A DNA stretch of 64,000 bases, taken from positions 44,441-108,440 of IMG/VR virus record IMGVR_UViG_3300033112_000310. One strand, given 5' to 3'. The number at the start of each line of letters is the position of its first letter. Position 1 is the stretch's first letter. The position numbers and the translations under genes are program-made. This document shows positions 18,020 through 63,896 of the stretch, in pieces. The notes below the pieces were generated by a model that was not told where the DNA came from, made no database searches, and worked only from the letters and a program-made list of their open reading frames with translations. This stretch comes from a virus.

Positions 18020-18023
18020 ACGG

Positions 18024-18216: not shown

Positions 18217-18226
18217 GGGCAAGAGA

Positions 18227-24319: not shown

Positions 24320-24320
24320 G

Positions 24321-27737: not shown

Positions 27738-27740
27738 GCG

Positions 27741-30700
27741 TCACCCCAGGAACCATTCGGTCGCCTTGTCCACGTCGCCGATGGCGTCCTCGCGCACGCT
27801 GCGCGTCAGCATCTTGGCGTAGCCGGCTTCCCCGTCGGCGCCCGGCTTGCCGTCCGTGCCCTCGATCTTCTGCCACCGCTGCCACCGCCACACGTCCTGG
27901 TTCGGCCGCCTGTTCCCCACCGCAACCCATGCCGCGCCAACCCCGTCCGGCAGGCTGCTTTGCACGTCGTAGGTATTGGCCGGCACCGCGTCCGTACCGT
28001 CCGGGAGACGCGACGGCTCGTCCACGGAACGCCGGAACACCGCGTTGATGTCGCCGGCTTCCTCGCACAGGCGGGCCACACCCACAACCGACGCCGTGTT
28101 GTCCGAACGGACCACGACGATCACGCACGCGACCTTCTCGGTTCGTGGGTCGTAGCCGGTCGGGAACGCCCGCGCCCACTGGCCGAGCCCGCCGAGCGTC
28201 TGCGCGGAATCGTTCCAGGTCGGCGCCGGGAGGTCCAGGTCGGCAACCTTCTTGCCCCGGTCCAGCTTCTGATAGACCGGGATGTCGCCAAAGCCCACTC
28301 CGTCCTTGCCTGCCGGCGTGTAGTGCAATGCGACCGCCCCGGTGGTCGGCGGGGAACCGAAGGACTCCACATGCGCGAGCGACAGGGTGGCCGTGCGGGC
28401 CGCGCCGGTGCCGGCGAACGTCGCAGCCGACCGCAAGGTGTAGTCGGCCCAATTGTCCTTGTCCCGGTAGATCGTGACGAGCGCGCCTGCGCCGACCAGC
28501 GACAACTGCGCCTCTTCGGTAGCGGACACCCCGACCTTGAGCGATCGGTTGCCGGACCAGTTGGACGTGGAACCGCCCAGGAACCATTCGGACGCGCTGT
28601 CCACGGCGGCGGCGGTCGCCGCACGCGTCGGGCGCGACAGCGAACGGGCATACCCTGCCAGTCCGCGAATGCCGGGGATGCCGTCGATGCCATCGAGAGA
28701 CGGGGCAATGCCGAAGGTCACGGGATTCGTGGTCGCGGTTTCGACGACGTGCTCCAGATGGACGACCGCGAGCGTCACCTTCCGCGTCGAGTCGTCCACC
28801 GCGGCGGGCGTTCGCGCGGTGACTTCGTAGTCGGCCCATGCGGTTATCGGATTCCCGTCGCGCACCGTCACCACGTCGCCAGCGCCCAACGCCCCGTAGG
28901 CGCGGCGGCGACGCACCGTGGCCGCCGCGTCTCCCGAGCTGATGCCAAGCTCGATGGTGTCGATGTCTGCGGCGTTCGCATCGGTCAGCGACGCGATGTT
29001 CGTCGTGCCGTCGCGCAGCCGGATTTCGGAATTGGCATCCGGGTCCGCCGTGCCCGCGTTCACGGTGAAGGTCTGCGCGATGCCGGCCCGCCCGGGTTTG
29101 CCGTCGATGCCGGCGGTCCCGCTCGGCGTGAAGTGCAGGGACACCGCCCCCGACGCCGGCGGCTTGCCGAAGCCTTCGACGAAGGCCAAGGACACGGTGG
29201 CGGTGCGGGTGCTGCCGCTCCCCGCGTACACGACGGCGGATCGCAAGGTGTAGTCGGCCCAATTGTCGCGGTCGTGGTAGACCGTCAAAAGGGCGCCGAC
29301 ACCGACGCGTCTCAGCTTGTCTTCCTCCGCTTCCGTCACCCGGATGGAGAACGTCCGGTTGCCCGTCCAGTCGGTGGCCGCACCGTCCAGATGCCACCGG
29401 GTGGCGTTGAGGTTCGCCGTGGACGACGCTCTGGACGCCCGCGAAATAGACTCCGCATAGCCGGACAGCCCTCGGGTTCCCGGTATGCCGTTGATTCCGT
29501 CGAGCGCCGGCGCGATGCCGAATATGGCACTCGCCTCGATGGCCGACTCCAACGCGTGTTCCAGATGTTCCACCGTCAGGACGACCTTTCCCTTCTTGGT
29601 GTCGTCCGCGATGAGGTCCGCCGGCGATGTCGAAGCGGCGGTCACCTGGTAGTCGGCGAACTTGGTGTTCCCGCCCTCGTCGAGGGCTTCGCGCACCGTC
29701 ACCACGTCGCCGGCGTTCAGCGCCCCGTATGCCCTGCGACGCCGCACCGTGGCCGCGTCCGTACCCGAGCCGATCCCGAGTTCGATGGTGTCCACGTCCG
29801 CCGCGTTGTCCGCCGTCAGCGACGTGACGTCGGTGCTGCCCTCGCGCAGCCGCATTTCCGAGTTGGCGTCCGGGTCGGCGGCACCGATGTTCACCGCGAA
29901 CCGCTGCGCGATGCCGGCCGCTCCGGGTTTGCCGTCGATGCCAAGCCCTTCGGCGACGGACACGGTGTTTGATTCGACCTGCTCCGATGTTCGGCGCCCC
30001 GCCCGGGTCTGTATGCGATAGGCGACTTCGTATGCGCCCCCGCCTAGCGTCTCGCCGTAGCCTATTTGACCGACCACGGCGGCTTTGACTTCGGCATCGT
30101 CCGCGATGGTTGCGGGCTGCGTGCCTTCCTGACCCCGGCTGACGGTTAGCGTGTTGCCCGTCTTCGCCGTCACCAGCAGGACTTCGGTGCCGATGTAGAC
30201 AAACGCGTTCAGCTCGATGGAAGTGGCGTCGTCAACGACGATGCGCGTCGCACCGGTGCCGTATCCACCCGCTTGGTTGACGCGGGTAAGCCGCGAACCA
30301 GCGGCGCTGTGAATCGTGAGGTCAGGGACGCCGAGCGTGGCGTGCGGTTGCCAGGTGGCCTTGTTGTCGAGGCTGCGTTCGATGTCGAAGCCGGTCAAAT
30401 CGAGAGCGGCGGACGCGTCGATTTGCCATCGGAGGTCCGTTTCCCGCGTCGTTTGATCGACGGTTAACTGCACGTTGGTGGGTGCGGGGACGGCTGCACC
30501 GGCGGGCGCGTCCGCGACCACCGGCGTGTTGGCGGACGGGCGCCATGCGAAGTCGGTGCGCACGAAGCGCCGACAGACGACATCGAAGTACCCGTCAGAC
30601 CGCGGACGCCACGCGATGACCATCGCGTACACGTTGATTCCCTGCTTGTCGGAGTCGATTTCCACGATGTCGCCAAGTTCCAGCAGCAAGGCGATGGTGC

Positions 30701-32198
30701 GCATCGGAAGCGTGTAGACCTCGCGCCGACGCAGCAGGGTCGACGTCGCTCCCGCCGTGTACGCGTGGAACTCGTTGTTGACGAACTGGAAGTCGAACGT
30801 GTCCTGCAGGGTTTCGCCGTCCGCCGTCTCGAACTGCATCTGCGCCGGGGATCCTTCTGGCGGCCACTCCCGGTCGTCGCCCGCGTAGTCGAGCGCCGCT
30901 GACGGAAACCGCATCGCGATGCTGTTGGACAAGTCGTCCGGCTGGCCAACCTGAATCTCGTCCACGAGGTCGGTGTCGCGGATGGTCTTGACCACCTGGT
31001 TGGCTTCCGGCGTGTTCGCGTCCGGCAGCTTGATTCCCAACTTGCCGTTGAACCGCTGGAAGACGAACGAACCGGGCGCGATCTGCCGTAGCTGGTTCTG
31101 CAAGTCGCCGAAGGAAAGCGCCGTGTCGATGATCCCGTTCGGCTCGTAGCGGCGCAGCTTCCGGGTCGCCGCATTGTCCCGGTGGGCGGCGTTCGTCGGG
31201 AACCGCGGACGGGTCGGGAACAACCCGTAGGTGAGTTGCCCAATGCCATCGAGCGTCCTGACATCCTCGGGAATCGACGTGTTGTCGGCGGCGTCGAAAC
31301 CAGGCACGAACGGCTCGGCTATCAGCCGGGCCGCGTTGAACAAGTCGAAGTCGATTTCCGACGCGGCGAGTTGGACGCCGAACCGCGGATGCGAGGCGAC
31401 GCCGGCGATGACCGTCGCCAAGTCGTTCTGCGTCGTGTCGGCACCGAACCCCGCCGCCGTGATCGACTTCCACTGGCCAGCGCCCGTCAGGAACAGGAGT
31501 ACGCCCGGCAACCGGTCGGTCGCCAACTGGACGTTCTGCGGTTCCTGCTTGCCTAGCAGATGGACGAACGACAGGCCGGTGAACTTCGCGTCGGCCCGGC
31601 CCGGGTCGAAGGTCGCGGCGCACGCCGACGGGCTGCCCGACACGCCGACTTCCACGATCACATGGCCGAGCACGTCGTTGGCGCGCTGGTCGAAGTTGTA
31701 GGTCGGGCCGACCCGGATGTCCCGGTCTTCGACCCATACTTCGCTGACCGTCCCCATGTGCCCGCCGCCGGCGCACATGGGCACCAGAAGGTACTGGTTG
31801 TTGCGGCCACGGCCCGCTTCGATGATCGCGCCGAAGGATTCGACATTGTTGCCGCGCACGTTCTTCGGAGTCCGCGACGTCGGCTGGCCGTTCGGGAACA
31901 CCGCGCCGCGCATCCGGCTGATGGCCGTGCTGACATCCGCGCCCTGATGCCAGTCGACCGGGATCGCGTGGAAGGCGGTATCCCCGACCGGCATCTGCAC
32001 GTCGGTTGCGGACGGCGTGTCCCGGATGGCGAACCGAGCGCGCTCGATTGCTCTCGATTCGAGTTCCCGTTGCTGGCGCTTGGCACTCAGCGTCGTATAG
32101 GTCGCGCTTGCCGCCGCAATCGACAGCGCGACCCAATTCGCCTCAACGAACTTGAAGGCGGCGATGGTCGCCTTGATCGCCCACAGGGGAAGGGCCAT
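27741..32198 (-). CDS. tail tip / host-specificity (central fibre) protein
   Basis: Position after tape measure and two small tail genes; tip-like N-terminal part (LLELGDIVEI), FN3-like region, then repeats with collagen-like linkers. Confidence 0.8.
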   Translation of the reverse strand: MALPLWAIKATIAAFKFVEANWVALSIAAASATYTTLSAKRQQRELESRAIERARFAIRDTPSATDVQMPVGDTAFHAIPVDWHQGADVSTAISRMRGAVFPNGQPTSRTPKNVRGNNVESFGAIIEAGRGRNNQYLLVPMCAGGGHMGTVSEVWVEDRDIRVGPTYNFDQRANDVLGHVIVEVGVSGSPSACAATFDPGRADAKFTGLSFVHLLGKQEPQNVQLATDRLPGVLLFLTGAGQWKSITAAGFGADTTQNDLATVIAGVASHPRFGVQLAASEIDFDLFNAARLIAEPFVPGFDAADNTSIPEDVRTLDGIGQLTYGLFPTRPRFPTNAAHRDNAATRKLRRYEPNGIIDTALSFGDLQNQLRQIAPGSFVFQRFNGKLGIKLPDANTPEANQVVKTIRDTDLVDEIQVGQPDDLSNSIAMRFPSAALDYAGDDREWPPEGSPAQMQFETADGETLQDTFDFQFVNNEFHAYTAGATSTLLRRREVYTLPMRTIALLLELGDIVEIDSDKQGINVYAMVIAWRPRSDGYFDVVCRRFVRTDFAWRPSANTPVVADAPAGAAVPAPTNVQLTVDQTTRETDLRWQIDASAALDLTGFDIERSLDNKATWQPHATLGVPDLTIHSAAGSRLTRVNQAGGYGTGATRIVVDDATSIELNAFVYIGTEVLLVTAKTGNTLTVSRGQEGTQPATIADDAEVKAAVVGQIGYGETLGGGAYEVAYRIQTRAGRRTSEQVESNTVSVAEGLGIDGKPGAAGIAQRFAVNIGAADPDANSEMRLREGSTDVTSLTADNAADVDTIELGIGSGTDAATVRRRRAYGALNAGDVVTVREALDEGGNTKFADYQVTAASTSPADLIADDTKKGKVVLTVEHLEHALESAIEASAIFGIAPALDGINGIPGTRGLSGYAESISRASRASSTANLNATRWHLDGAATDWTGNRTFSIRVTEAEEDKLRRVGVGALLTVYHDRDNWADYTLRSAVVYAGSGSTRTATVSLAFVEGFGKPPASGAVSLHFTPSGTAGIDGKPGRAGIAQTFTVNAGTADPDANSEIRLRDGTTNIASLTDANAADIDTIELGISSGDAAATVRRRRAYGALGAGDVVTVRDGNPITAWADYEVTARTPAAVDDSTRKVTLAVVHLEHVVETATTNPVTFGIAPSLDGIDGIPGIRGLAGYARSLSRPTRAATAAAVDSASEWFLGGSTSNWSGNRSLKVGVSATEEAQLSLVGAGALVTIYRDKDNWADYTLRSAATFAGTGAARTATLSLAHVESFGSPPTTGAVALHYTPAGKDGVGFGDIPVYQKLDRGKKVADLDLPAPTWNDSAQTLGGLGQWARAFPTGYDPRTEKVACVIVVVRSDNTASVVGVARLCEEAGDINAVFRRSVDEPSRLPDGTDAVPANTYDVQSSLPDGVGAAWVAVGNRRPNQDVWRWQRWQKIEGTDGKPGADGEAGYAKMLTRSVREDAIGDVDKATEWFLG

Positions 32199-38100: not shown

Positions 38101-38652
38101 TCAGTCGACGGTTTGCGGGTCCAGGGAGCTTGACGCCTCGAATACGACCAGGCCGGCGGTCGCGTCCAGGCCGCGCTGGATGCTGTCCACGACGGACGTC
38201 GGCACGAGGTTCCAGCGCAGGAGTCGCTGACCGCCGGTGAGCCACGGCCGAATGTCACCGGCGATGAGCGACCGGGCCATGACGAGTATCTTGGCGCGTT
38301 GTTTGCGGGACGGGTCGTCTTTGTCCGCGAGCCGCGCCAGTTCGTCGACCACTCGTTGTTGCTGTCTCGGGTTCCGGCGATCCGACGGGTCCGTCGTGAA
38401 ATCCGTGACCGCCACCGTAATCACCAGGTCGAACGTCCAGACGAAGCCGCGCGGACGGCCCGTCGGCCCTTGCCCCGCTTCGTTGCCGACGCGGTCCACG
38501 GAGACCCCGACGTTGCCCGAGGCCGCTGCGGTTACCCGCGCTCGCGCGACAACGCGGGGGCCGGGCGTGTCGGGGGGCAGCAGGGGCAGAATCCCGGACT
38601 TGTCCAGCTTGTCCGCAAGGACACTGACCACCGCTTCGTCTATCGCCCGCAT
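38101..38652 (-). CDS. putative tail completion/terminator protein
   Basis: Synteny upstream of the tail tube gene only. Confidence 0.45.
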   Translation of the reverse strand: MRAIDEAVVSVLADKLDKSGILPLLPPDTPGPRVVARARVTAAASGNVGVSVDRVGNEAGQGPTGRPRGFVWTFDLVITVAVTDFTTDPSDRRNPRQQQRVVDELARLADKDDPSRKQRAKILVMARSLIAGDIRPWLTGGQRLLRWNLVPTSVVDSIQRGLDATAGLVVFEASSSLDPQTVD

Positions 38653-39269
38653 CCGCCTTCTCCCCTGCGTGCTTCGTCACGCCACCGCGCGACCACCCCG
38701 GCTTCGACGCCTGCGTGTTCGGGCACATGCCACCAGCCCCACAGCTCGGGCCTGTCGCATACCAGCAGGCACGGCCACCCCTTCGCCGCAAGGCGCTCGA
38801 CCGTCTCGCGGTCGTCTTCCACCGCCAACGCCACCCGGTTGCTTCCGCGGGCCGCGTAGGCGAGCTTGAGTTCCGGGTTCCGTCTCGTGTCGTCGTTGGC
38901 CCGACAGAGCGTGAACGACGGCACCACCCCGTGCCGGCCAAGCCACTCGTCGGCAAGATCCCGGTGGCGCGTCGGCTCGCCCGTCCACACGCAACACTCG
39001 GTGCCAGCGTCCTGCAGGCGATGGAACAGGTCGATCACCGCGGGTCGCGGCGGATCGTCCAGCAGCCGGGCGAAGTATTCGGGCCACGACGGCGCAGAAG
39101 CGCGACGCTGCGCGTTGTCCGAAAGGGTGCCGGCGAGGTCGAAGTAGACGCGCTCGCCCGTAGGGTCAACGCCGGCAGGTCGGTACTGGTGTTCGTCGCA
39201 GTACCAGCCGTCGACAAGCCGGGGGCACCCCGGCCAGTCGCATTCGAGAAGGCTCGAGCCTTGTCCCAT
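38640..39269 (-). CDS. HAD-family phosphatase-like protein (PseT/PNKP phosphatase type) with N-terminal zinc motif
   Basis: FDLAGTL, WTGEP, K, VEDD motifs; N-terminal CDWPGCPRLVDGWYCDEH. Confidence 0.75.
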   Translation of the reverse strand: MGQGSSLLECDWPGCPRLVDGWYCDEHQYRPAGVDPTGERVYFDLAGTLSDNAQRRASAPSWPEYFARLLDDPPRPAVIDLFHRLQDAGTECCVWTGEPTRHRDLADEWLGRHGVVPSFTLCRANDDTRRNPELKLAYAARGSNRVALAVEDDRETVERLAAKGWPCLLVCDRPELWGWWHVPEHAGVEAGVVARWRDEARRGEGGCGR

Positions 39270-41684: not shown

Positions 41685-42047
41685 CTATTTCGCGCCACCC
41701 GGACATGCCGCGTCGTCGCACATCGTCGCCACCCCGTTTTCCACCAGGAAGTGGCACCAGTTCGCCGGCAGGTCGGACAGGTTGCGACCGTGCACGCGCC
41801 GGAAGTCCGGCGACGGGCCAACGCGACGGCTGCCCACCGAACCGTCCAGCGTCAGCGCACCTTCGGCGTCGAACGAAATCAGGTGGGGCGGGGACGTGAC
41901 GTAGACCTCGCGTCCGCCGCACGGACAGACGAACACGATTGCCTGCGGGGCGTCGGAACCGAACGGCCAGTGGATCACCGTGCCGTCCGCGTCCGACGGG
42001 CGGTGGTATTCGGTGGCCGTGTCCCGAGACTTCCGGTAGATGGTCAC
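41685..42047 (-). CDS. DUF6527-like protein
   Basis: FVCPCGG...LTLDGSV...WCHFLVENG. Confidence 0.65.
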   Translation of the reverse strand: MTIYRKSRDTATEYHRPSDADGTVIHWPFGSDAPQAIVFVCPCGGREVYVTSPPHLISFDAEGALTLDGSVGSRRVGPSPDFRRVHGRNLSDLPANWCHFLVENGVATMCDDAACPGGAK

Positions 42048-42736
42048 GGCTTCTGCGGCACGCCCCGCTCGTCCGCGTCGACCTTGCACCCTCCCTTGCC
42101 GAACACCGCGGCCAGCGCGTCCCGTTCCGCCCGGTCCACGGACAGCCCGTGCTTGCGCTTGACCGCAACCCATGTGCCGACATACCAGCGCACCCGCTTT
42201 TTCGGCAGCCACTCGGCGGGATCCTTGTCCACCTTCTCGTAGCGATTGACGCTCGGCAACGCCAAGGTCAGGTTGTCGAGGTCGCGGGCGAATGCGGTGC
42301 GCGTCGCGCGGTCGGCCCGGCACAAACCGCTGTCATGCGCTTCCGCCGCCGCGACAATGTGCTCGATGTCGGTGTCCCGGAGCGAGCGGACGCGGACACC
42401 AGGCATATAGGGGGACGGGAAGGGTCGGTCGAGCCACGCGCATCGGCTTTTCGGCTCGCCGCCGCATAATTCCTCGTCGAGTCCGTACCCCGCCCGCTCC
42501 GCGATTCTCCATTCGATGCCGCTGACATCGTGGTCGTAGTCCCTGTCGCGGTTGTAGTCAGAACAGCGGTGCTCCGGTTCGACCACCAGGCCGCACCACG
42601 TCTCCGCTTTCGACTCGTCTGCCGCAGCGCATTCGGCGATGAAGCCGACCGCGACAAGGCCGCACAGGGCCAGCACGGCGACCACGCCGATTGGTTCGAC
42701 CTTCTCGTAACGTGGCTTTATTGCGATTCCCTCCAT
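42044..42736 (-). CDS. secreted HNH-type nuclease (DUF1524-like)
   Basis: Signal/TM helix; DIEHIVAAAEAHDSG...FARDLDNLTLA..VNRYEKVDKDPAEWLP. Confidence 0.8.
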   Translation of the reverse strand: MEGIAIKPRYEKVEPIGVVAVLALCGLVAVGFIAECAAADESKAETWCGLVVEPEHRCSDYNRDRDYDHDVSGIEWRIAERAGYGLDEELCGGEPKSRCAWLDRPFPSPYMPGVRVRSLRDTDIEHIVAAAEAHDSGLCRADRATRTAFARDLDNLTLALPSVNRYEKVDKDPAEWLPKKRVRWYVGTWVAVKRKHGLSVDRAERDALAAVFGKGGCKVDADERGVPQKP

Positions 42737-43371
42737 TCCAGGTACGCCTTGTCGCGCTCGGCGGAACTCACCCGGCGTCCGACGGCGCGGCTGAGCGCCA
42801 AGCACTTGGGCTTTCCCCTGGATGTCCAGAACGCCCGGTTGCCCGGCTCGGCGTTGCGGATCGCTTCCACGACATCGTTTCCCGTATCCCTCGACTGCGC
42901 TTCATGGTCGAGCAGCCGGGTCTTGATGTTCGCCTTCGCGGACAGGATGCCCCCGGGGTCGTTCGCCATGTCGCGTTCCAGCCGCGCCCACAGTTCCCTC
43001 GCCGCGTCGTTCGCCGTGTCGTTGAGCTTGAGCGGGTGTTCGGAGGGGTCCGCCGGGCCGATCATGCCCGACCGCATGACGCGGCACGCCTCGTCGTAGA
43101 TGTCCGGCAGATAGTTCATGGGCAGTCCGCCGCCGAGGTCGCGCGCCCTCGCGTCCGCTTCCGCCCTGCGCCACTCGTCGATCGTCATGCCCGCGTCGGC
43201 GGCAAGCCGTTCCTCTTCCCGCAGAAGGTCGGCGGCACGCCGGTCGGCGTCAGACGTGTCCGGCGCGGCGTTCTGCTCGGCCATGTAGCGGTCCAGTTCG
43301 TCCTGCGCCCAATCGGTGCCCTGCGCAATTTCGCGCTTGAGATAGTCGATGTAGCCCTGGTCGATGCTCAT
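42718..43371 (-). CDS. hypothetical protein
   Basis: Start MSIDQGY at 43371; helical and acidic. Confidence 0.6.
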   Translation of the reverse strand: MSIDQGYIDYLKREIAQGTDWAQDELDRYMAEQNAAPDTSDADRRAADLLREEERLAADAGMTIDEWRRAEADARARDLGGGLPMNYLPDIYDEACRVMRSGMIGPADPSEHPLKLNDTANDAARELWARLERDMANDPGGILSAKANIKTRLLDHEAQSRDTGNDVVEAIRNAEPGNRAFWTSRGKPKCLALSRAVGRRVSSAERDKAYLEWRESQ

Positions 43372-54843: not shown

Positions 54844-56661
54844 CTACAGCGGGATTGTCTCGATCTTCGGCACCGGCTCGTCCGCCTCAAGGTTCATGGC
54901 CCGCCCGCATCCCATCGTGCAGCAGATCGCCCCGTCGATCTTCTTCGCCCGGTTCTTCGGTCGCGGCGGCTTCACGGTGTCGTCGTCGTACCGCTTGCCC
55001 ACGAAATTGTCCACCATCCAGTTCAACACGGGGTTGTCCGGGTGCCGGAAGCGCCCGGAGTCCACGGCGCTTTGGAACTCGTACATGGCGTTCGTGTACG
55101 TCGCCGCGCCCTGGCCGAACCGCACGATCTCCGTCCATACAACCGACTCCCCGACCGTCTGTTCCACGCCGCTCGATCGGTTTGGGTCGGTGATGTATTC
55201 CTTGGCCAGAAGATCGTTGAGCCAGTTGGTGATGGTCGCCGCCACCTTGAGAATGTCGATTTCCTCGCCTTCGTGAAGCGTGATGTACGGCTCCCACGGC
55301 TCGTAGCGCCGCACCTTCTCGAACGTGGCGCGCGGCAGCCAGAAGAACGGGACGGCCCAATAGATGCGCGGCCACTTCTTGGTGCCGTCCGCGAGCACCG
55401 CCGGCGTCACGTCCTTGTCGTCCTCGTAGAACAGGACCACTGCGGCGGTGAAGTCGATCTTGGCCGCTAGGTCGGTGACCACCACGCACGGCAGATGCTT
55501 GAGCATGTCGAACACCCGAGGGTCGTCCGGAGAGACGATTTCGGCGTCGGGATCTCCGTCCGTCCACCCTTCCTCGCGTTCCTTGTCTTCGTATTCGCGG
55601 TGCACCGGCAGCATGTCGTAGCCGTTCTGCGCCCAGGCGTTCATGTCGATCCAAGGGTCGGCCTGGCCAATCCAGATGTTCAGGTTCTTGGTCTTGAACG
55701 CCGTCTGCTGGTGCCGCGAGCGGATCGCTTCCTGCTGGTCTTCGCGCAGCGTCCCGATGAAGGTCGAATGGCCGATGTTCGGGTTGGCCTCGTACAAGGC
55801 CTCGTCGGTCTTCCAATGATCCGGGTCGGCATCGTCCTTGATCGTGTAGATGATGGCGAACTGGCGGTCGGCCTTCGTGTCGGTGAGCGTGCCGGCTAGA
55901 ATGTCCACCATGTCGCCGCGCAGCCGGTGGCACGGCCCGTCGATGTTGTCGCCCGCAGTGGTGATGACGAACAGCATGGCCCGGCGCCGTGCCCCGGTGC
56001 CGGTCTTGAACGTCTCGTAGGCCCGGGCGTGGTCGTGCTCGTGGTACTCGTCAATGACCACGAACGACGGGCTGTCGCCGTCAGGCGGATCCCCGACCAC
56101 CGGCTTGAAGCTCAGGTTCTCGCTGTCGTTGTAGATCGACTTTTGCAGCACGTCGAGACTCAGGTGCTGCCGCAGTTCGTCGTCGTCCCGGAGCATCTGG
56201 TACGCCGGGTGGAACACCTTGTAAGCCTGCTTCTCGTTCGTGGCCGCGCAGTAGACCTCCGCGCCCGGCTCGCCGTCCATCGTCAAGAAGTAGAGACAGA
56301 ACCCTGCAGCGAAGGTTGATTTGCCCGACTTCCTGGGGACTTCGACGTAGGCTTCCTTGTACTTCCGAAACCCCTTGTGCTCGCCCTCGGCGTAGTGCAA
56401 CCCGATGATGTTGGCGATGATGAAGCACTGGTAGGGGGACGGCTCGAAACGCTGGCCCCGCCACTCGCCGCTGACGTGCGGCAACCAGGTGAAGAACTCG
56501 CCGCAGTCGCTGACCGCCTGGCTGTCGTAGTAGAGGTCCGGGCGTTGCAGGTCGTCCGCGAACCGCTGGCACGCCTGGACTACGAACTTGCACGCCGGGA
56601 TGTTGCCGTGAAGGACGCCTTCGGCGTAGTCGAATGCGGTTTCGGTGAACCGGTCAGCCAT
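54844..56661 (-). CDS. terL: terminase large subunit
   Basis: VPRKSGKS Walker A, VVIDEYH Walker B, ITTAG, DLAAKIDFTA, KIDGAI. Confidence 0.97.
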   Translation of the reverse strand: MADRFTETAFDYAEGVLHGNIPACKFVVQACQRFADDLQRPDLYYDSQAVSDCGEFFTWLPHVSGEWRGQRFEPSPYQCFIIANIIGLHYAEGEHKGFRKYKEAYVEVPRKSGKSTFAAGFCLYFLTMDGEPGAEVYCAATNEKQAYKVFHPAYQMLRDDDELRQHLSLDVLQKSIYNDSENLSFKPVVGDPPDGDSPSFVVIDEYHEHDHARAYETFKTGTGARRRAMLFVITTAGDNIDGPCHRLRGDMVDILAGTLTDTKADRQFAIIYTIKDDADPDHWKTDEALYEANPNIGHSTFIGTLREDQQEAIRSRHQQTAFKTKNLNIWIGQADPWIDMNAWAQNGYDMLPVHREYEDKEREEGWTDGDPDAEIVSPDDPRVFDMLKHLPCVVVTDLAAKIDFTAAVVLFYEDDKDVTPAVLADGTKKWPRIYWAVPFFWLPRATFEKVRRYEPWEPYITLHEGEEIDILKVAATITNWLNDLLAKEYITDPNRSSGVEQTVGESVVWTEIVRFGQGAATYTNAMYEFQSAVDSGRFRHPDNPVLNWMVDNFVGKRYDDDTVKPPRPKNRAKKIDGAICCTMGCGRAMNLEADEPVPKIETIPL

Positions 56662-57277
56662 CCTTGGCCGGCGGCTTCTTCGCGAACCGCTTGGACGCTT
56701 CGATCACCGCCCCCCGGTCGGCACGTTCGACGGCTTTGTCGCCGGCCTTCGGACGCGCCGGCGCGCTGCCGCGGCCGCGGGACTGGCCTTCGACACCGGA
56801 GAACCTGCCGGCGTCCTTGGGCGGCGGTGCCGCTTCCAGCCGTTGGCGACCGACCGGGTTGCGCCCGAAGTCCGTCCACTGGCCGCGGAGTTGCTGCAAT
56901 AGCTGGACGGCGAGACGCGCGCTAGGCGCGGGCATCGGGCCGGCAGTGCGTTGCACCGTCAGTCCGTTCTCCGAAACGTCCTGCGCCGCCTGCCAGAAGG
57001 TGAACGTGGCCCAACACTCGGCCGCCACCGCGTCCCGGTCGGGGTTCTGCATCACGCCGGCGGTCGCGTACTCCCTCACCCGGTCGCGGTACATGGCCCG
57101 CAGTACCCGGGCCTTGTCGGGCGGCTGCGTCTTGACGAGCGCCGCGAAGCCGGGCGGCAGACGATTGATCAGGTGTGTTTCGTAACGCGGTTGCAGCGGG
57201 TTCATCCGGCTCGGCTGAGCCGTGCCCCGCCGTTCCTTGGTCGCGTCCGGGAGCGCCTTTCCCGTCTTGTTAGCCAT
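56654..57277 (-). CDS. terS: terminase small subunit (P27 family)
   Basis: Overlaps the terL start; K..RGT...R.N...P N-terminus; DFGRNPVGRQRL. Confidence 0.85.
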   Translation of the reverse strand: MANKTGKALPDATKERRGTAQPSRMNPLQPRYETHLINRLPPGFAALVKTQPPDKARVLRAMYRDRVREYATAGVMQNPDRDAVAAECWATFTFWQAAQDVSENGLTVQRTAGPMPAPSARLAVQLLQQLRGQWTDFGRNPVGRQRLEAAPPPKDAGRFSGVEGQSRGRGSAPARPKAGDKAVERADRGAVIEASKRFAKKPPAKDG

Positions 57278-57419
57278 CGTTAACCCCGCCGATCAAACTA
57301 GCGACAAGCGTCCTGCGGATGTGGTCGTATGCGCGCTTGGCGAGCGCGTGTTGGTGGACGAAGCCGACGACGTAGCCGACGACCACGGCCGCCACGAGCC
57401 ACCACCAGTCAACCACCAT
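57270..57419 (-). CDS. small membrane protein (49 aa)
   Basis: Read manually: MVVDWWWLVAAVVVGYVVGFVHQH...; stop overlaps the terS start region. Confidence 0.55.
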   Translation of the reverse strand: MVVDWWWLVAAVVVGYVVGFVHQHALAKRAYDHIRRTLVASLIGGVNDG

Positions 57420-57427
57420 GATCGAGC

Positions 57428-57700
57428 CTACTGGACGTGCTGAACCACAACGGAGATTGTGCCTCGGGTATCCACCGCGACCACTGGCGGCACGTAAGCG
57501 ACCACCGATGGATCGTCGGGATCAGGAACGATTGCGCCGGGGTCGGCCGACCAGGTGTATCGCGTCGTCCGGGGAATCTCCACGTCGCCGACCAACTTTG
57601 GTTGCGTGTTCGGTGTCTTGCGAGCATCCGCTAACGCGCGGACCCCGACGCCGGCGAACGGCAATAGCGCCAACAGCCGGAACAATCCTCTTCGGTTCAT
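57428..57700 (-). CDS. twin-arginine-leader protein carrying a major-capsid-like peptide
   Basis: MNRRGLFRLLALLPFAG leader; LVGDVEIPRTT matches capsid LVGDVAIPRQT; GGGAG SD. Confidence 0.7.
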   Translation of the reverse strand: MNRRGLFRLLALLPFAGVGVRALADARKTPNTQPKLVGDVEIPRTTRYTWSADPGAIVPDPDDPSVVAYVPPVVAVDTRGTISVVVQHVQ

Positions 57701-57762
57701 CCGTCTTCTCCCGTCATCCAAGTCGCCCGGAGCGTGGCTGACCATTTTGCGAATGGAACGAG

Positions 57763-57948
57763 TCACGCGCAAATCGGGTCTTCGCCTTCCGCGTCCCTGA
57801 TGTCAGCGCGCAGCATCCACCCGTCCTGCAACGCCTGCACGTAAGACTCGTACCGATCCGCGTTCGCGCGTGTAACAAAGCTGCGGCCAACAAGGGCAAT
57901 CGGCAACAGCCCCAACACGCGCCGGAACAGTCCCCTTCGGTTCATCAT
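57763..57948 (-). CDS. twin-arginine-leader protein carrying a portal C-terminal-like peptide
   Basis: MMNRRGLFRRVLGLLPIAL leader; 16 of 25 residues identical to the portal C-terminus; GGAG SD. Confidence 0.75.
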   Translation of the reverse strand: MMNRRGLFRRVLGLLPIALVGRSFVTRANADRYESYVQALQDGWMLRADIRDAEGEDPICA

Positions 57949-57995
57949 CTCTCTCCGTCATTCGAGCCGAACAGGCGCGAACATACCACGACTCG

Positions 57996-58328
57996 TCAGC
58001 GCCGCCGGTAGTCCCATCCGGTCTGGCGCTCACTGGCGGATTTCCGCCCGTGGCAGGACGAGCACATCGAAACGAGGTTGTTTGGGTCGAAGAACAGCTC
58101 GGGATCGCCCCGGTGGGGCGTGTCGTGGTCGGCGACCGTCGCCTTCCTGCCGCAATCGCACCACGGCTCGCGGGCCAACTGGTCGGCCCGCAGCCGGCGC
58201 CATTCGGCGGTGCCGTAGAGCCTAGCGCGGTTCGCGGGTTCGGCGTCGGCGTGGTCGCCGCAGTACCGCCCGCGCGTCAGGTTCGGGCATCCGGGGTGTT
58301 CGCAAACCTGGCGCGGACGGGTGGCCAC
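57996..58328 (-). CDS. HNH endonuclease (HK97 gp74-like packaging cofactor)
   Basis: CEHPGC...YCGDH; LAREPWC..ATVADHDTPHRGD..LFFDPNNLVSMCSSCHGRKS. Confidence 0.92.
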   Translation of the reverse strand: MATRPRQVCEHPGCPNLTRGRYCGDHADAEPANRARLYGTAEWRRLRADQLAREPWCDCGRKATVADHDTPHRGDPELFFDPNNLVSMCSSCHGRKSASERQTGWDYRRR

Positions 58329-58331
58329 GGC

Positions 58332-58853
58332 TCAGGCGATGGAGACTGTTTCCGTCTTGAAGGTGCCGTTGTCGTGCCGCGTGATGTCCGTTCGACGCTT
58401 GCTTCCTCTCGGTACCGTCAACGTCTTGACGCCGTGCACATCGAAGAACGACGACAGCTTGCGGTGAAGGGTGTCGACGTGTCTCTGGGCTTGTTCCAAG
58501 CCGTCCCGCGCGTGCTCGACTTCTTCAAGCGCATGAACGTAGCGCACTGGAATCTGAACGTCCAAGGCCACCACCGATGCGATGTCGGGATCAAGCCCCA
58601 TGCGCGTCAACTGGTCGCGCTGCATGGCGCCGAACTCGATGGGCGTCCTGCCTTCGGACGGCGGCGGCGGCGGCTTGTCGATAACGCTAAAGCCGTGCGT
58701 CTCACGGTAGGACGCCACGGGTTCCGCCTGAGCCGACGGTTCCGCCTCGGCAAAGACCAAAAGCCGTCCACCACCCATGTCGCGGATGTACCGCCCTTCA
58801 ACGTCCACGAACGCGGATTGGTGGGGTGCGAGAAAGATTCGGTAGATTCTCAT
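58332..58853 (-). CDS. hypothetical protein
   Basis: 173 aa with GGAG SD. Confidence 0.65.
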   Translation of the reverse strand: MRIYRIFLAPHQSAFVDVEGRYIRDMGGGRLLVFAEAEPSAQAEPVASYRETHGFSVIDKPPPPPSEGRTPIEFGAMQRDQLTRMGLDPDIASVVALDVQIPVRYVHALEEVEHARDGLEQAQRHVDTLHRKLSSFFDVHGVKTLTVPRGSKRRTDITRHDNGTFKTETVSIA

Positions 58854-58908
58854 GTCAAGTCTCCGTTGTAGGTAAAGTCGGATGCCCGACCGACCCTAAC
58901 CACAACGC

Positions 58909-59226
58909 CTAGCATTCCCGCAGAACGCCGGCCTCGACCCAACCGTGCCATATGGTCCGCTCGCCGCTCTCGAACCGCACCTTGTGGTGCAGCGACGGGT
59001 GCAGCGTCGGCGCGTCGTCCGGCCCGTCGCACGTCCAGGTGTGCTCGCTGCCGTCGCTCGCCTTGACCGTCCGCGGACTGATCGGCCACGCCGCCATCAC
59101 CTTCTTGCCGTTCAGCCGGTCGGGCGTGCAAAGGTAGAGTTCGCGGGTGCCGTCCCGGTGCCGTATCCAGTGGAAGTCGCCCGGTTCGCGAACCGCTTCC
59201 ATCGAGAACCGCTCGTGCATTCGCAC
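58909..59226 (-). CDS. DUF6527-like protein
   Basis: WTCDGPDDAPTLHPSL...WHGWVEAG. Confidence 0.7.
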   Translation of the reverse strand: MRMHERFSMEAVREPGDFHWIRHRDGTRELYLCTPDRLNGKKVMAAWPISPRTVKASDGSEHTWTCDGPDDAPTLHPSLHHKVRFESGERTIWHGWVEAGVLREC

Positions 59227-59235
59227 GGCGACGGC

Positions 59236-60558
59236 TCAGCTCGGGTCGCGCGGCTGCAACGCGCCGATGAAGTGGCGCTGGAAGAACGCCAGCAGGAAGG
59301 CGCGCTGCTCGTCCGTCAGGTTGTCCATGCCCGGCACCATGTCGCGGTTCGCCGGAACCATGTTGGCCGGGACAAGCACTTCGTCCATGCCGGCGACCAT
59401 CGGCTTGCCTTCCTTCCCACGGACTTCCGAGCGCAGAAGCCAGCCGTCCATCAACGCCTGGTGGTAGGCCTCGTAACGGTCCTTGATGTTCGCCTCGAAG
59501 ATCACGTCGTGGTCGAACTCGTAGAACAGGCCGTGGCCGCGCTCGCGCCGCGTCAGCAGCTTCCGGGTGCACTCCTCTTCCCACACGATGTAGTTCGGAA
59601 TCATCGTGTGCTTGCCGAAGTGCGCGTCCTGTTCGATCGCGTTGGTGAACGTGTTGTGCTCCAAATCCTGCACGAACACCGGCGGCACCCGGTAGATGCC
59701 GCACACTTCCGACCGGTTGAATTGAAGCCACTGCAACGTCTGCGCATCGACCGGGCTTATCATCGTCGGCTTCCACTGAGCGCCCCTCGGGAGAATCGGC
59801 GTCTGGTTGGACGAACCCCCGTCCTGGCCGAACTTCTCCCGCCAGTTCTCCGCGAACTCATCGATCGCCCTGACGGTCATGTCGGTTTCGACCACGCCCT
59901 TGGGACTGCCGCCGCGCGCGTAGAACCGCCCCGTGTGGATGTGCGCGGCCAACCCCTGGCCGATGACCTCGCGCGCAATGCGGATCGGTGAATAGCCCTG
60001 AATGCCGTTGAACCCTAGATTGGGGATGTGCAGCACGTCGTCGGCCATCAGCCGGCGCGTCTTCCTGTCCTTGCCCGGCCCGCGATGGTCGCCGGTCACC
60101 AGGTAGACGAGCGACCCATCCTTGAGGTACTCGGGGGTGACCTGCTCGGCGTAGAGCATCCGCACTTCGATTGGGAACGGCCCGTCGCGGATGATTTCAG
60201 CGTAGCCGTTGCCCCAACCCTGACGTTGCGCCTCGACCGACTGCTTGAACGTGTACGGCGTCTGGTCTTCGTTGGGCAGCGACGACATCAACCCGAACAG
60301 CCGGTGGTTCACCGCCGGCTCGGCGCCCCGACCGTCCGGCAGACGGCGCATCAGCCGCAAGGGGGTGCGCGCCAGCGTCTCGCTCAGAACCTTGATGCAC
60401 GCGTGGACGTAGCTCAACTGCATGGCGCGCGTCACGTTGACCGCGACGCCCGACGAGTTCTCGCCTTCCTGCTTTAGCAGCCACTCCGCGTACTTCGACG
60501 CGTTGCCGATCGCCTGGAAGTAACGCTTGGTCGCGTAGAAGAAGTTCGTCAGTTCCAA
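59236..60558 (-). CDS. HK97-family portal protein
   Basis: YVHACIKVLSETLA, GWGNGYAEI, DVLHIPNLGFNGIQGYSPI, IYRVPP. Confidence 0.97.
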   Translation of the reverse strand: MELTNFFYATKRYFQAIGNASKYAEWLLKQEGENSSGVAVNVTRAMQLSYVHACIKVLSETLARTPLRLMRRLPDGRGAEPAVNHRLFGLMSSLPNEDQTPYTFKQSVEAQRQGWGNGYAEIIRDGPFPIEVRMLYAEQVTPEYLKDGSLVYLVTGDHRGPGKDRKTRRLMADDVLHIPNLGFNGIQGYSPIRIAREVIGQGLAAHIHTGRFYARGGSPKGVVETDMTVRAIDEFAENWREKFGQDGGSSNQTPILPRGAQWKPTMISPVDAQTLQWLQFNRSEVCGIYRVPPVFVQDLEHNTFTNAIEQDAHFGKHTMIPNYIVWEEECTRKLLTRRERGHGLFYEFDHDVIFEANIKDRYEAYHQALMDGWLLRSEVRGKEGKPMVAGMDEVLVPANMVPANRDMVPGMDNLTDEQRAFLLAFFQRHFIGALQPRDPS

Positions 60559-60670
60559 AGGTCGCGCCCTCGCCGTTCACCGATGGTCGGGCGGAACGGA
60601 CCCGCCGAGAGCAATCGGCCGCCGGCGGGCGACCGGGCGGGACCGTCCGCCCGCCCGTCGAATCGAACCG

Positions 60671-60961
60671 CTACTTCTTCGGCGTCGGCTTCCGGGTGCC
60701 GTCGCCGCTCTCGCCGCCGCCGTTGTCGCCGCCGTTGTCGCCGTTGCCGCCGTTGTCGCCGCCGTTGTCGCCGCCCGGATCATCGTCCGTAGGCTGACGG
60801 CGGCGGTTGCGCGGAGCCGTCGAATCCTCGAACAGCGGCACGCCTTCACGCGACCGGTGCTTGAGCGCGTTGTAGTCGTTCGCCGGCATCTGCACGCGGT
60901 CGCCCTTGCTGCGCGCCCTGCCTTGAACGTACATGTTGAAGTTCAGTTTTACCCACTTCAT
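60671..60961 (-). CDS. small head-associated protein with GGDN repeats
   Basis: GGGAG SD; KGDRVQM motif; low-complexity tail. Confidence 0.65.
   Translation of the reverse strand: MKWVKLNFNMYVQGRARSKGDRVQMPANDYNALKHRSREGVPLFEDSTAPRNRRRQPTDDDPGGDNGGDNGGNGDNGGDNGGGESGDGTRKPTPKK
60712..60776 (-). repeat. imperfect 12-bp tandem repeat (GGCGGCGACAAC) encoding GGDN
   Basis: Visible in the sequence. Confidence 0.85.
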
Positions 60962-61007
60962 GGTTGTTGTGCTCCCGTCAACTCGTTTGGGTGTGTGCCG
61001 CCGCGCG

Positions 61008-61412
61008 CTAGGTGTACTGGCCGCGCGTCAGCAGGAACGCGGCGCCGACGTTCAGCGATGCCCCCGTTCCCGTCTCGGTAACCACCGCACGGACGTACCG
61101 CTTGCCGCCCAGGTAGGCATCGAGAATCGCCGCTTGGTCGACGGTCGTCGCATTGATGACGCGGGACGCCTCGCCGGAAGCCATCATCCCGGCCTCCACG
61201 TCCGCCCAGGCGGTGCCGTCGTCGCTGTCCTGCACCTTCAAGGTGTAGTAGTTCGCCGCGGTGAGGCTCGCGCCCGCCCCGACGACCCAAACGACGCCGA
61301 CCCCGCCGTGCTCGACCGTGTCGACCGATTCGCCGTTCGCCGAGGCCGACGCATTCTGCGCATCCAGCGAGCGCACCACGTCGACGTTGCCGAAGTCCTT
61401 CTTCTGAAACAT
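61008..61412 (-). CDS. capsid decoration/cement-like protein
   Basis: Directly after the capsid gene; LKVQDSDDGTAWADV...YLGGKRYVRAV. Confidence 0.65.
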   Translation of the reverse strand: MFQKKDFGNVDVVRSLDAQNASASANGESVDTVEHGGVGVVWVVGAGASLTAANYYTLKVQDSDDGTAWADVEAGMMASGEASRVINATTVDQAAILDAYLGGKRYVRAVVTETGTGASLNVGAAFLLTRGQYT

Positions 61413-61495
61413 GCCCTTCTCCTTTCGTTTCGGGTTGGGGCGGAACCCGATATTAGGCCCGCCCTTGTTTCACTTTGCGTTCGTGCCGTCTCCGC

Positions 61496-62983
61496 TCAGG
61501 CGAAGATCGCGAACGATTCCGGGTGCCGAACAGCCACGTCGCACGAGTGGAAGATGATCACCCGGACGGCACCGGCGGTCGAACGGCTGTAGGGGTCAAC
61601 CAGAATGTCCAGCATCCCCCATTCCCCGACAATGACGTCCGACCAGTTCCCGAAGAACAGTTCGTTCAACGTGATTTGGTTCGATTCGGCCAACGGATAG
61701 GGCAGCTTGTCCGCCAGGAACACGCCCGACCCCGGGTCGACACGCCTGCGCATCATGTTGGTCGTGATCGTGGCCCCGCCCGTGAACCCGAGGTTGCCCA
61801 TCAAGGCGTTGTCCGTCGCGATCTCCTTGCGGAGTTCGAGAACCCCCAACCACGTCGGGTCGCCCTCGTCGCCCTTCTTCGTGTCGATCTCGTTGATCGC
61901 CGTGTCTTCGTGCGTGACCGAACCGACGCCGGTTACGTTCTTGACGCCCAACGGTTGCCCGTTCACGCCCGTACCGCGGAACGCGGCCCGGTCTTCGGCG
62001 AGCGCCACTTCCGTCATCAGGTCGCGACGGATGAAGTTCTCCACGGCCACCGACGACTGCAACCGCAGCGCGCGGGTGTAGTCGGTGTACGCGCCGACCG
62101 TCCGCGGGGTCATCGTGATCTGGCCGACAGCCTGGTCGGTGTTGCCGACGTCGGCCCCGTCCTTCGGCACCCACGAGACGACGCCCGCGCCCGTCTGCCG
62201 CGGAATCGCCACGTCGCCCACCAGACCGGTAAGCATCGTGGCACCGAGCATCGGCAACGCCTGGTTGTTGCGCAGCAGTTCGATCATCGACTGCGGCCGC
62301 CAATCGACCCCCACCAGCGCGCCGGCGCCGGAGAAGTCGTCGGCCGACAGATCCCGCTGTTCGATGCCCCAAAGGTCCATCAGGGCACGGCCCGCTTCCC
62401 GCGCCATATCGCTCTTGTTGAAGATCAGGCACTTGAGCCGGGCAATCGCGGCCGCCCGCTGGCCCGTCACCACGTCGCCGTACACGTCGGGCGGAACGTA
62501 GAAGCCGAGCGGCGCATCCTTGATCTGCGCCGAGTACGCATCGACGGCCTCAAGTTCCATGCGCGCCGCCTCGCGGTCGGCGTCGATCGCACCCTTCGAC
62601 CGGGCGATGATCAGCTTGTTGAACGAGAAGTCGCGCATTTCCCGGTCGCTCAGGCCGATGGGGTCGGTCAACCGGTTGCTGTACTGGCCGACTTGAAGCT
62701 GACGCTTGATGGCCTGGCGCTGTTCGTGGATTTCGCCGCATTCCCGCTCAAGTGTCTTCTGCTCCTCGATTTCGTCCGGGGTCAGGTTCCTTGATGCGAG
62801 AAAATCGCCGATTTCCGACAATCTCACGCGTTTCTCGTGTTCCTGCTCGCGCAGCCGGCTTTCCCGCGTCCGCAGGTTGCCGCGCTGTTCTTCCGCAGTC
62901 GTCGTCGGGCCACCGCCGCCGGGGTTGTTCCCGCCGCCGTTGTTCCCGTCGCCGTTCCCGCCGTTGTTCGGTTCATCCGGCAT
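61496..62983 (-). CDS. HK97-fold major capsid protein
   Basis: N-terminal coiled-coil delta domain; GDVAIPRQT, AFRGTG..GQPLG, FFGNWSD, DVAVRHPESFA. Confidence 0.97.
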   Translation of the reverse strand: MPDEPNNGGNGDGNNGGGNNPGGGGPTTTAEEQRGNLRTRESRLREQEHEKRVRLSEIGDFLASRNLTPDEIEEQKTLERECGEIHEQRQAIKRQLQVGQYSNRLTDPIGLSDREMRDFSFNKLIIARSKGAIDADREAARMELEAVDAYSAQIKDAPLGFYVPPDVYGDVVTGQRAAAIARLKCLIFNKSDMAREAGRALMDLWGIEQRDLSADDFSGAGALVGVDWRPQSMIELLRNNQALPMLGATMLTGLVGDVAIPRQTGAGVVSWVPKDGADVGNTDQAVGQITMTPRTVGAYTDYTRALRLQSSVAVENFIRRDLMTEVALAEDRAAFRGTGVNGQPLGVKNVTGVGSVTHEDTAINEIDTKKGDEGDPTWLGVLELRKEIATDNALMGNLGFTGGATITTNMMRRRVDPGSGVFLADKLPYPLAESNQITLNELFFGNWSDVIVGEWGMLDILVDPYSRSTAGAVRVIIFHSCDVAVRHPESFAIFA

Positions 62984-63017
62984 GGTTCTTCCCTCTAGCT
63001 GTTGGTTACCCGCTCGA

Positions 63018-63896
63018 TCATTTCAGGGAATCGAGCAATCCCTTGTTCTCCCGCTTCTTGGCATCCAGCGCGCCCTTGAGCCGGTCGCGCTCGCCTTCGA
63101 GCTCGGTGATCTTCTCCCGCTGCGCCGCCGCGAGGTCGCGCAGGTTGTTCAACTCGACCATTTCCTGCGCCCGTTCCAGCGTCGTCGGCGCCGCCGGCGG
63201 AGGATTCGGATTCGGCTCGGACGGCGAGGGTCGCGAACCCCCTCCGTTCCCGCCGCCGTTGTTCCCGTCGCCGTTGTTTCCGTTCCCGTCGCCGCCGCCA
63301 GCCGCAGCCGCAGCCGCAGCCGCAGCCGCAGACCGCGCGTCCCGCCATTCCTGGAACGAACGCTTGGCGACCTCGCACGACGTGTCCGAATAGGCCGCGA
63401 ACGTCACCGGGCCGACATCGTAGAGTTCGTCGACCCGCGTGATGGTCCGCAAGTAGTCGTCGTCCGCCCGCTCGTCCCACTCGTAGGCGCCGGTGCGGAA
63501 GCTGAACGACGACTGCGAAACGTCCCCGCGCTTGATCGCCTGGTAGACCATTTCGGCGTTCGCGCCCGGCGGCATCTTGTTCCGGTAGCGCAGCCCGGTG
63601 TCGTCCACCGACAGTTCCAGGCTTTCGCTGATCTTCGTCCGGCCTAGCGGAAAGTTCGTGTCGTGGTTGAACAGGCACCTGCAGTCCGGGCCGTCCGCGA
63701 GCACGTCATCGAACGCCCCTACGGCGATCTTCTCGCTGTGCCCCGGCCAAAGCTCCGTCTCGGAATCGAAGACCGCCGCGTACCCTTCGATGAAGACCGC
63801 GGCGTCGTCGCCGTCGCCTTCGGCCCGTATCTCGATTGGCCCAAGGGCCGTGTCCAGCGTCCGGCGCTCGATCACGTTCGTCACTTCGTCCGGCAT
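63018..63896 (-). CDS. HK97-family prohead protease with C-terminal extension
   Basis: IEGYAAVFD, LFNHD, GLRY, SSFSF, ELYDVGPVTFAAY. Confidence 0.95.
   Translation of the reverse strand: MPDEVTNVIERRTLDTALGPIEIRAEGDGDDAAVFIEGYAAVFDSETELWPGHSEKIAVGAFDDVLADGPDCRCLFNHDTNFPLGRTKISESLELSVDDTGLRYRNKMPPGANAEMVYQAIKRGDVSQSSFSFRTGAYEWDERADDDYLRTITRVDELYDVGPVTFAAYSDTSCEVAKRSFQEWRDARSAAAAAAAAAAGGGDGNGNNGDGNNGGGNGGGSRPSPSEPNPNPPPAAPTTLERAQEMVELNNLRDLAAAQREKITELEGERDRLKGALDAKKRENKGLLDSLK
63301..63330 (-). repeat. (GCCGCA)5 hexamer repeat encoding poly-Ala
   Basis: Visible in the sequence. Confidence 0.9.

Follow-up and report, generated by a model that had tools for sequence, protein, structure and literature searches.

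Two small tandem phage genes with a common twin-arginine-type leader, one carrying a portal-like segment, between an HNH gene and terS

Results

The window analysed here is a stretch of 64,000 nucleotides (nt), bases 44441-108440 of the linear virus record IMGVR_UViG_3300033112_000310, which comprises 111,982 bases and is estimated to be about 89% complete. The G+C content of the window is about 65%. Between the gene of an HNH endonuclease and the small terminase gene terS it carries two adjacent small open reading frames (ORFs), here called ORF A and ORF B, with 48 nt between the HNH gene and ORF A and 62 nt between ORF A and ORF B. Every gene around them lies on the minus strand, and the order of transcription is prohead protease, major capsid protein 1, two small genes, portal, a DUF6527 gene, a gene for a product of 173 amino acids (aa) and HNH, followed by ORF A, ORF B, a 49-aa hydrophobic ORF, terS, the large terminase gene terL and large tail-fibre-like genes. 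An earlier note on this DNA, made from its letters, had placed two small ORFs in this gap, with a leader common to both at the protein and the DNA level and a Shine-Dalgarno sequence in front of each, and our analysis confirmed all of this on the minus strand at the positions in Table 1.

The two products begin with the identical residues MNRRGLFR, which are followed by a hydrophobic stretch, and both leaders end in RA(N/L)A-D. A GGAG sequence is found 7 nt 5' of the ATG in both cases, namely in front of the second ATG of ORF A, giving the 60-aa form that is present in the public protein collection, and as GGGAG in front of ORF B. The likeness of the DNA runs from about 35 nt 5' of the ATG into the hydrophobic region (h-region) with 67 of 87 alignment columns identical, 13 mismatches and 7 gap columns, and the repeat finder reported direct repeats 233-245 nt apart (D1 with 26 nt at 92%, plus D3 and D4). 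For the 25 aligned leader codons we counted 9.2 synonymous and 9.8 non-synonymous differences, corresponding to proportions of synonymous (pS) and non-synonymous (pN) differences of 0.44 and 0.18 and a ratio of 0.41 in this small sample, and the indels, of one codon and of four codons, are in frame. As pN is lower than pS, only whole codons were gained or lost and the start signals were kept, the data fit a leader peptide that would have been maintained since a duplication which was not recent.

As the earlier note had described, the leader fits the twin-arginine (Tat) motif. The sequence M-N-R-R-G-L-F agrees in both ORFs with the motif polar-R-R-x-hydrophobic-hydrophobic, and from the translations a putative h-region and a putative carboxy-terminal region (c-region) can be read by eye as VLGLLPIALVG...TRANA before D in ORF A and as LLALLPFAGVGV-RALA before D in ORF B. 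Furthermore, the same eight-residue start was found on three enzymes from metagenome contigs (molybdopterin oxidoreductase, carbonic anhydrase and metallophosphoesterase), as described below. In a protein language-model search ORF A was located near small hypothetical clusters, a TAT_signal cluster and the small subunit of a periplasmic hydrogenase, with scores of 0.84-0.87 that are to be taken as leads only. A pattern scan of the record found no leaders of the MNRRGLFR type beyond those of ORF A and ORF B. An origin of the leader from the portal stretch RRERGHGLF was considered and rejected because DNA similarity is absent.

Table 1: Features of the ORF A/ORF B locus and of related regions (window positions unless marked otherwise).
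Feature	Position	Strand	Remarks
ORF A	57763-57948	-	61 aa from first ATG, stop included in positions; likely start is the second ATG at 57945 (60 aa, MNRRGLF...)
ORF A leader cassette	57853-57980	-	about 35 nt upstream including GGAG, then MNRRGLFRRVLGLLPIALVGRSFVTRANA with D behind it; aligned to the ORF B cassette
ORF A portal-like cargo	57766-57867	-	A28-A61; core DRYESYVQALQDGWMLRADIRDAEGE
Source-like portal segment	59389-59493	-	portal residues 356-390, end of the Phage_portal domain; crown by inference
ORF B	57428-57700	-	90 aa, stop included in positions
ORF B leader cassette	57626-57735	-	upstream GGGAG, then MNRRGLFRLLALLPFAGVGVRALA with D behind it
11-residue island LVGDVEIPRTT in ORF B	57563-57595	-	9 of 11 identical to capsid protein 1
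ORF B residues 47-87	57440-57562	-	resemblance to second half of a PKD-like repeat (marginal)
49-aa one-helix hydrophobic ORF	57270-57419	-	0.36 bits/codon
HNH endonuclease	57996-58328	-	upstream neighbour of ORF A
Small terminase subunit (terS)	56654-57277	-	downstream neighbour
Large terminase (terL)	54844-56661	-	
Portal protein, HK97 family	59236-60558	-	sole full portal in the 112-kb record
Major capsid protein 1	61496-62983	-	
Prohead protease	63018-63896	-	
Second capsid paralogue	G000:C1:108523-109482		just outside the window
Third twin-arginine-type leader ORF, different leader	13281-13595	-	GTG start overlapping the upstream stop; MNRRRILKGLGAGAAM...

To the leader of ORF A a segment is joined that matches the portal protein of the same phage, which agrees with what the earlier note had claimed for one of the two cargoes. 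Residues 31-56 of ORF A and residues 360-385 of the portal are identical at 16 of 26 positions, and the Smith-Waterman score of 96 was reached by 0 of 2000 shuffles (24.7 +/- 3.8, maximum 43). When the cargo was ranked against the whole proteome the portal came first with 96, the runner-up had 38 and shuffled cargo did not exceed 51, and a six-frame search of the genome gave an expectation value (E) of 8.3e-9 for the portal. The DNA match extends over about 87 columns with 17, 22 and 15 of 26 codon positions 1, 2 and 3 being identical, respectively. This homology is sharply bounded, as it is absent from the leader (score 8 versus 6.3 +/- 2.4 for shuffles) as well as past the stop, and it begins at A-N-(A)-D-R-Y, the predicted signal-peptidase site between ANA and DRYE, supporting the idea of a constant leader cassette with swapped cargo. 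At the junction short bases are common to portal and ORF A, first GCGAAC and then GA(T/C)CG.

Profile searches led to the same segment. PF04860 aligned to ORF A with positions 293-321 of 321 only (E 0.042, 13.5 bits versus a cut-off of 39.1) and TIGR01537 with its last approximately 30 positions (E 0.0093), and throughout the record the portal profile found the full portal gene and, elsewhere, only ORF A. When the 35-aa cargo was searched against 50,697 phage records it matched 89 of them at E<=10, and the 30 listed rows consist of 19 portal, 5 hypothetical and 6 unannotated proteins with no other annotation among them. The segment of the phage's own portal found 129 records in the same search with similar scores (36 bits, versus 34 bits for the ORF A cargo). 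Among the matches listed no portal is nearer to ORF A than the phage's own, all being below 60% identity, and the C-terminal region of the portal found itself only in the protein collection.

In order to follow the constraint on this patch, ORF A was aligned with the phage's own portal segment and with eight distant portal segments, four from each hit list; all four obtained with ORF A as query and two of the four obtained with the portal as query were later rows of the lists and not top hits. ORF A differs from its own portal at 15 of 33 columns. Agreement of all eight distant portals with the phage's portal amounts to 18% at these 15 columns versus 50% at the 18 unchanged ones (permutation 73/20000), and for the four portals from the portal query, which are the less biased set, to 33% versus 57% (permutation 681/20000). 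Thus, the differences avoid columns conserved in the family (p 0.03-0.004). At the differing columns ORF A often has residues that are used by other portals, and it retains R, Y, G-W, R, D/E-I/V-R and E-G like the distant portals. Because the differences spare the conserved columns and often bring in portal-like residues, the ORF A patch is in terms of its sequence a valid variant of the portal segment and not a decayed copy. The pattern shows selection on a portal-like shape during divergence, which would have acted either in the mini-gene itself or in another portal gene whose truncation is only recent.

The phage portal is similar to the solved chains 8cez (HK97 portal, E 1e-20) and 9lbn (E 1.3e-30), and the copied segment aligns with approximately residues 366-398 of the 424-residue HK97 chain. 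From this position and from the order of the domains we infer that the segment corresponds to the portal crown. The HK97 portal report describes a model spanning residues 32-398 and a crown that faces the packaged DNA (PMC10359639). Compared to the HK97-family crown segment (PF04860, TIGR01537; 8cez_A, 9lbn_H), residues 28-59 of ORF A match the last approximately 30 profile positions, but ORF A comprises only about 7% of a portal, is devoid of clip, stem and wing and is fused to a leader. A complex prediction with two portal copies and residues 27-61 of ORF A, run without controls, gave a score of 0.00.

Whether the two frames look like genes was judged with a codon model for which 28 long genes served as the training set, with scores given in bits/codon. 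ORF A scores 0.22 in frame, the two remaining frames giving -0.38 and -0.48, and ORF B 0.09 versus -0.19 and -0.41. Real windows of 60 and 90 codons have means of 0.34-0.35 with 5th percentiles of -0.06 and 0.01, and spurious overlapping ORFs have a mean of -0.21 with a 95th percentile of 0.22. When a second training set was used, ORF A and ORF B outscored each of the six overlapping rival ORFs as well as an adjacent ORF (57803-58033). Compared with the real and spurious windows, ORF A looks coding-like and ORF B weakly so.

For ORF B the earlier note had proposed a match to the major capsid protein, and this did not hold up. The island LVGDVEIPRTT corresponds to LVGDVAIPRQT in the capsid protein with 27 of 32 nt identical and weak extension beyond, and for ORF B and the major capsid protein as a chosen pair the score of 50 was reached by 2 of 2000 shuffles. 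Against the whole proteome the capsid protein ranks third (50), as terL (53) and a tail-region protein of 1218 aa (51) score higher, and 33 of 200 shuffled cargoes reached at least 50. Genome-wide the 27/32-nt island has a blastn-short E of 0.11, tied with five other matches, and capsid profiles miss ORF B, with PF05065 finding only the two capsid genes. A match to the second capsid paralogue was also tried and gave nothing (714 of 2000 shuffles reach the score). Judged from the sequence, the capsid match of ORF B is not above chance genome-wide and the capsid claim is not established. The proposed arrangement of a leader plus a virion fragment within the head and packaging module is seen in ORF A, with its portal segment between HNH and terS, and is not established for ORF B.

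Another resemblance was obtained for the tail of ORF B. When 1.84 billion representatives were searched in full with HMMER, the only matches were ORF B and a pair of giant repeat proteins, one of which, with ten K319L-like PKD repeats, matches residues 47-87 repeat after repeat, so that the whole-library E of 1.5e-6 represents ten summed repeats. A profile made from these repeats scored ORF B with 13.8 bits, which was reached by 0 of 2000 shuffles (maximum 10.7), and within the phage it found the 1138-aa protein (E 1.9e-7), the 1218-aa protein (E 0.0026) and, as third, ORF B (E 0.022). With a profile from the phage's own five repeats ORF B reached 10.7 bits versus a shuffle maximum of 10.5 and a genome-wide E of 0.09, being the best frame outside the source proteins. 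The match covers the second half of the repeat only, and ORF B has no Pfam hit. By these marginal scores the tail of ORF B may resemble half a PKD-like repeat of the phage's own giant tail-region proteins at least as much as it resembles the capsid protein. The giant tail-region proteins (1218, 1138 and 1485 aa; window 20663-32198) have internal paralogy in common, and two of the three contain fn3 domains and PKD-like repeats of the form Y-x-W...P-x-V-x-x-D-T.

Recurrence in other phages had been set beforehand as a test by the earlier note. The exact genes were found nowhere else in the collections searched, and the architecture recurs in a loose sense. A search with the back-translated start of the leader found 20 loci in viral contigs, among them five distinct small leader ORFs (70-98 aa) with a signal-like stretch. 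Three of the five are located within about 1.3 kb of terS or terL, belonging to three different terminase families, and the remaining two follow a portal-like gene. One of these ORFs (L022 on viral contig G002, 2730-3023; 98 aa) lies between a terS and a terL of the same PHROG families as in this phage, and its best self-match is an NLPA stretch of the portal directly after the crown segment, which is not significant (35 of 100 shuffles). The 71-aa leader ORFs of two viral contigs (L013, L018) have the ending '...LTAADLNHNF...', which faintly resembles the N-terminus of a tail-fibre family (phrog_33320, E 0.22).

A scan of metagenome contigs for the leader start gave at least 119 stretches. 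Among the matches listed, the MNRRG(F/L)FR start heads typical enzymes of the Tat type, with the domains Molybdop_Fe4S4 and Molybdopterin, Pro_CA (beta-carbonic anhydrase) and Metallophos. Further small leader ORFs are also among the matches listed. Of four whose neighbours were inspected, one is surrounded by tail genes, two are close to an endolysin and to a phage family of unknown function, respectively, and one gave no hit. One open-ended metagenome ORF (L164, 3-323, minus strand) has an MNRRGFFR leader joined directly to the start of a T4-type Gp23 capsid domain (31.2 bits versus a cut-off of 24.4; phrog_138, E 2.3e-5) and may be a full capsid protein rather than a mini-protein. When ORF A was compared with longer proteins nothing was found at E<=10, which is uninformative as a 26-residue match is too short to reach significance in 5.8 billion sequences. 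A single contig match of ORF B lies inside a tape-measure protein and was rejected as chance.

The surroundings of the two ORFs show several further features. The 49-aa hydrophobic ORF starts 8 nt past ORF B, overlaps the start of terS and may belong to the same cassette. From 54844 to 63896 the head module has an unusual order on a single strand, with protease, capsid, portal, HNH, terS and terL, and its head genes are located upstream of the terminase rather than downstream. Two major-capsid paralogues with 29% identity over 293 residues, both above the PF05065 cut-off, flank the prohead protease. For terL no relatives were found in viral or metagenome contigs. The third twin-arginine-type leader ORF has 21.8 bits with PF10518 (TAT_signal) versus a cut-off of 22.7, and its cargo has no self-match in the phage proteome (127 of 200 shuffles reach the score). 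Its translation is coupled to that of an upstream ORF whose start looks like that of a lipoprotein (...LLTAIGC...), and this region (window 13281-13984) resembles a small cluster of envelope-targeted accessory genes. Late genes include one for a phosphatase of the polynucleotide-kinase type and one that encodes a GmrSD C-terminal nuclease domain (38640-39269 and 42044-42805), and two adjacent tRNA-Ser genes with the anticodons TGA and GCT are present at window 17930-18217. Scans for promoters and terminators gave nothing exceeding shuffles, and Rfam gave just two sub-threshold chance matches. One public sequencing run contains the region, in the form of contigs and probably from the source sample, and no RNA run is listed.

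Discussion

Most likely, ORF A and ORF B would represent a pair of young chimeric accessory genes for predicted exported mini-proteins. We tentatively favour a reading in which these tandem small genes with their duplicated leader have products predicted for Tat-type export, and in which ORF A is an extracytoplasmic mimic of the portal crown, likely directed against incoming related phages. A leader-bearing small gene would have captured a portal patch of about 90 nt at the short common stretch GCGAAC...GA(T/C)CG, and the 5' part of this gene (about 125 nt) would then have been duplicated in front of a different tail, resulting in ORF B. Because of the Z-R-R-x-hydrophobic-hydrophobic motif, the short h-region, the basic c-region and the AxA site before D, both products would be exported by the twin-arginine route, and cleavage would release peptides of 31 residues (ORF A) and 66 residues (ORF B). 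The ORF A product would thus display a look-alike of the portal crown outside the cytoplasm. As its target we would guess, from the predicted location alone, proteins brought in by related virions and normally docked on the interior of the head, which would result in superinfection exclusion.

Besides the portal crown, two known systems are suited for comparison. With Tat signal peptides the leaders have in common the N-R-R-G-L-F motif, a putative short h-region, a putative basic c-region and AxA before the presumed cargo, and also the eight-residue start of the three metagenome enzymes, but they do not reach PF10518 or TIGR01409, the predicted cargoes of 31 and 66 residues have no cofactor domain and the phage has no tatA. 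The antiholin RI of T4, whose signal peptide is cleavable (PMC8385771), has in common with the two products a small size, a predicted cleavable signal, a gene near late genes and a possible action on superinfection or lysis. However, there is no sequence relation, RI as described there has no virion-protein fragment and the features found here are of the Tat type rather than the Sec type. In the literature searched, as far as titles and the openings of abstracts tell, there is no description of phage proteins joining a Tat-type signal to virion fragments.

Several results weigh against the export and mimicry reading. A search of 5.8 billion clustered proteins of similar length gave no match to ORF A other than itself, and neither ORF A nor ORF B has a relative in viral or metagenome contigs. 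The leaders match neither PF10518 nor TIGR01409 at E<=10, and a tatA gene was not found in the phage. The coding score of ORF B corresponds to about the 5th-10th percentile of real windows of 90 codons, and with the second training set an antisense ORF nearly equals it (-0.02 versus 0.02). An AlphaFold2 model of ORF B made without an alignment has low confidence (predicted local distance difference test score of 57), and the Atlas fold models are of low confidence as well (0.57 and 0.42). The constraint pattern in the portal patch could stem from a second portal that was functional in the past, instead of having been kept up in the mini-gene. Finally, the idea that the C-termini of such leader ORFs would match proteins of their own genome gained no support, as the cargoes of the five ORFs from other viral contigs gave nothing significant against these contigs (1/100 to 94/100 shuffles), which are fragmentary with 8-50% completeness. 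The case with 1/100 is a short, gap-free match of low identity and was not trusted.

Some of these points would also be expected if both ORFs were by-products of illegitimate recombination and duplication in the gap between HNH and terS, with a portal patch from a second or foreign head module and with functionless frames that are open by chance in GC-rich DNA. We regard this explanation as somewhat unlikely. It would agree with both ORFs being orphans, with the weak coding score and missing confident fold of ORF B, with the short common bases at the portal junction and with the rearranged head module and second capsid paralogue (29% identity), which point to an earlier duplication or import of head genes. 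On the other hand, GGAG, ATG and the full layout of the n-, h- and c-regions of a signal peptide were kept in both copies despite a pS of 0.44, indels affect whole codons only and pN is lower than pS. The portal patch does not trail off as in a decaying gene but is sharply bounded on both sides and retains the residues conserved in the family, and the rival frames score lower.

A broader version of the favoured reading, in which ORF A and ORF B would belong to a widespread class that combines a constant twin-arginine leader with swappable virion motifs (portal crown, capsid, tail repeats) for mimicry across the membrane, appears doubtful. Members of such a class would either trap the ejected head-docking proteins of a superinfecting relative or carry cytoplasmic motif-reading sensors along to the Tat translocon.

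There is also a small chance that the products act as a cytoplasmic decoy or sponge which shows short virion motifs to defence sensors of the host, with the leader serving as a membrane tether or as a drag to the Tat translocon. ORF A does retain a conserved portal motif, and a recent preprint names portal, capsid and terminase as defence triggers, with only Lit and CapRel said to read short motifs, namely of the capsid (bioRxiv 10.64898/2026.01.04.697583). The same source states that the portal sensors (Avs) recognize folds via extended interfaces, and a piece of 30 residues is unlikely to mimic a fold that is wrapped in this way. Moreover, these sensors are located in the cytoplasm, from which an export leader would remove the peptide, and the capsid copy is unsupported here.

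Similarly improbable is a modulator of assembly or packaging, in which the crown-like peptide would bind the portal or a partner of its crown in the cytoplasm, thereby tuning head assembly or the end of packaging in the phage itself or poisoning these processes in competing phages or satellites. Satellites and prophages interfere with the assembly of their helpers, and the location in the packaging module by terS and terL would fit such a role, as would the described orientation of the crown towards the packaged DNA (PMC10359639). The signal-peptide layout favours export instead. That the repeats are packaging signals of a cos region (e.g. binding sites of the small terminase) with incidental ORFs is very unlikely, since, although the cos site of HK97-type phages lies between the HNH gene and terS and direct repeats at this spacing could suit such signals, the repeat keeps frame, start codon, ribosome site, a protein-level pattern and pN below pS, and there are two copies only with no further repeat structure or terminator found.

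Conclusion

Should the two ORFs be debris, they would still illustrate clearly that new phage ORFs can arise when short patches of structural genes are copied and fused. If their products are made and exported, the phage sends a copy of a conserved piece of the head interior outside the cytoplasm. Were the favoured reading true, the split between a constant leader and a swapped cargo would be a means of finding more such genes, and mimicry between phages or between phage and host would act in the envelope rather than in the cytoplasm.

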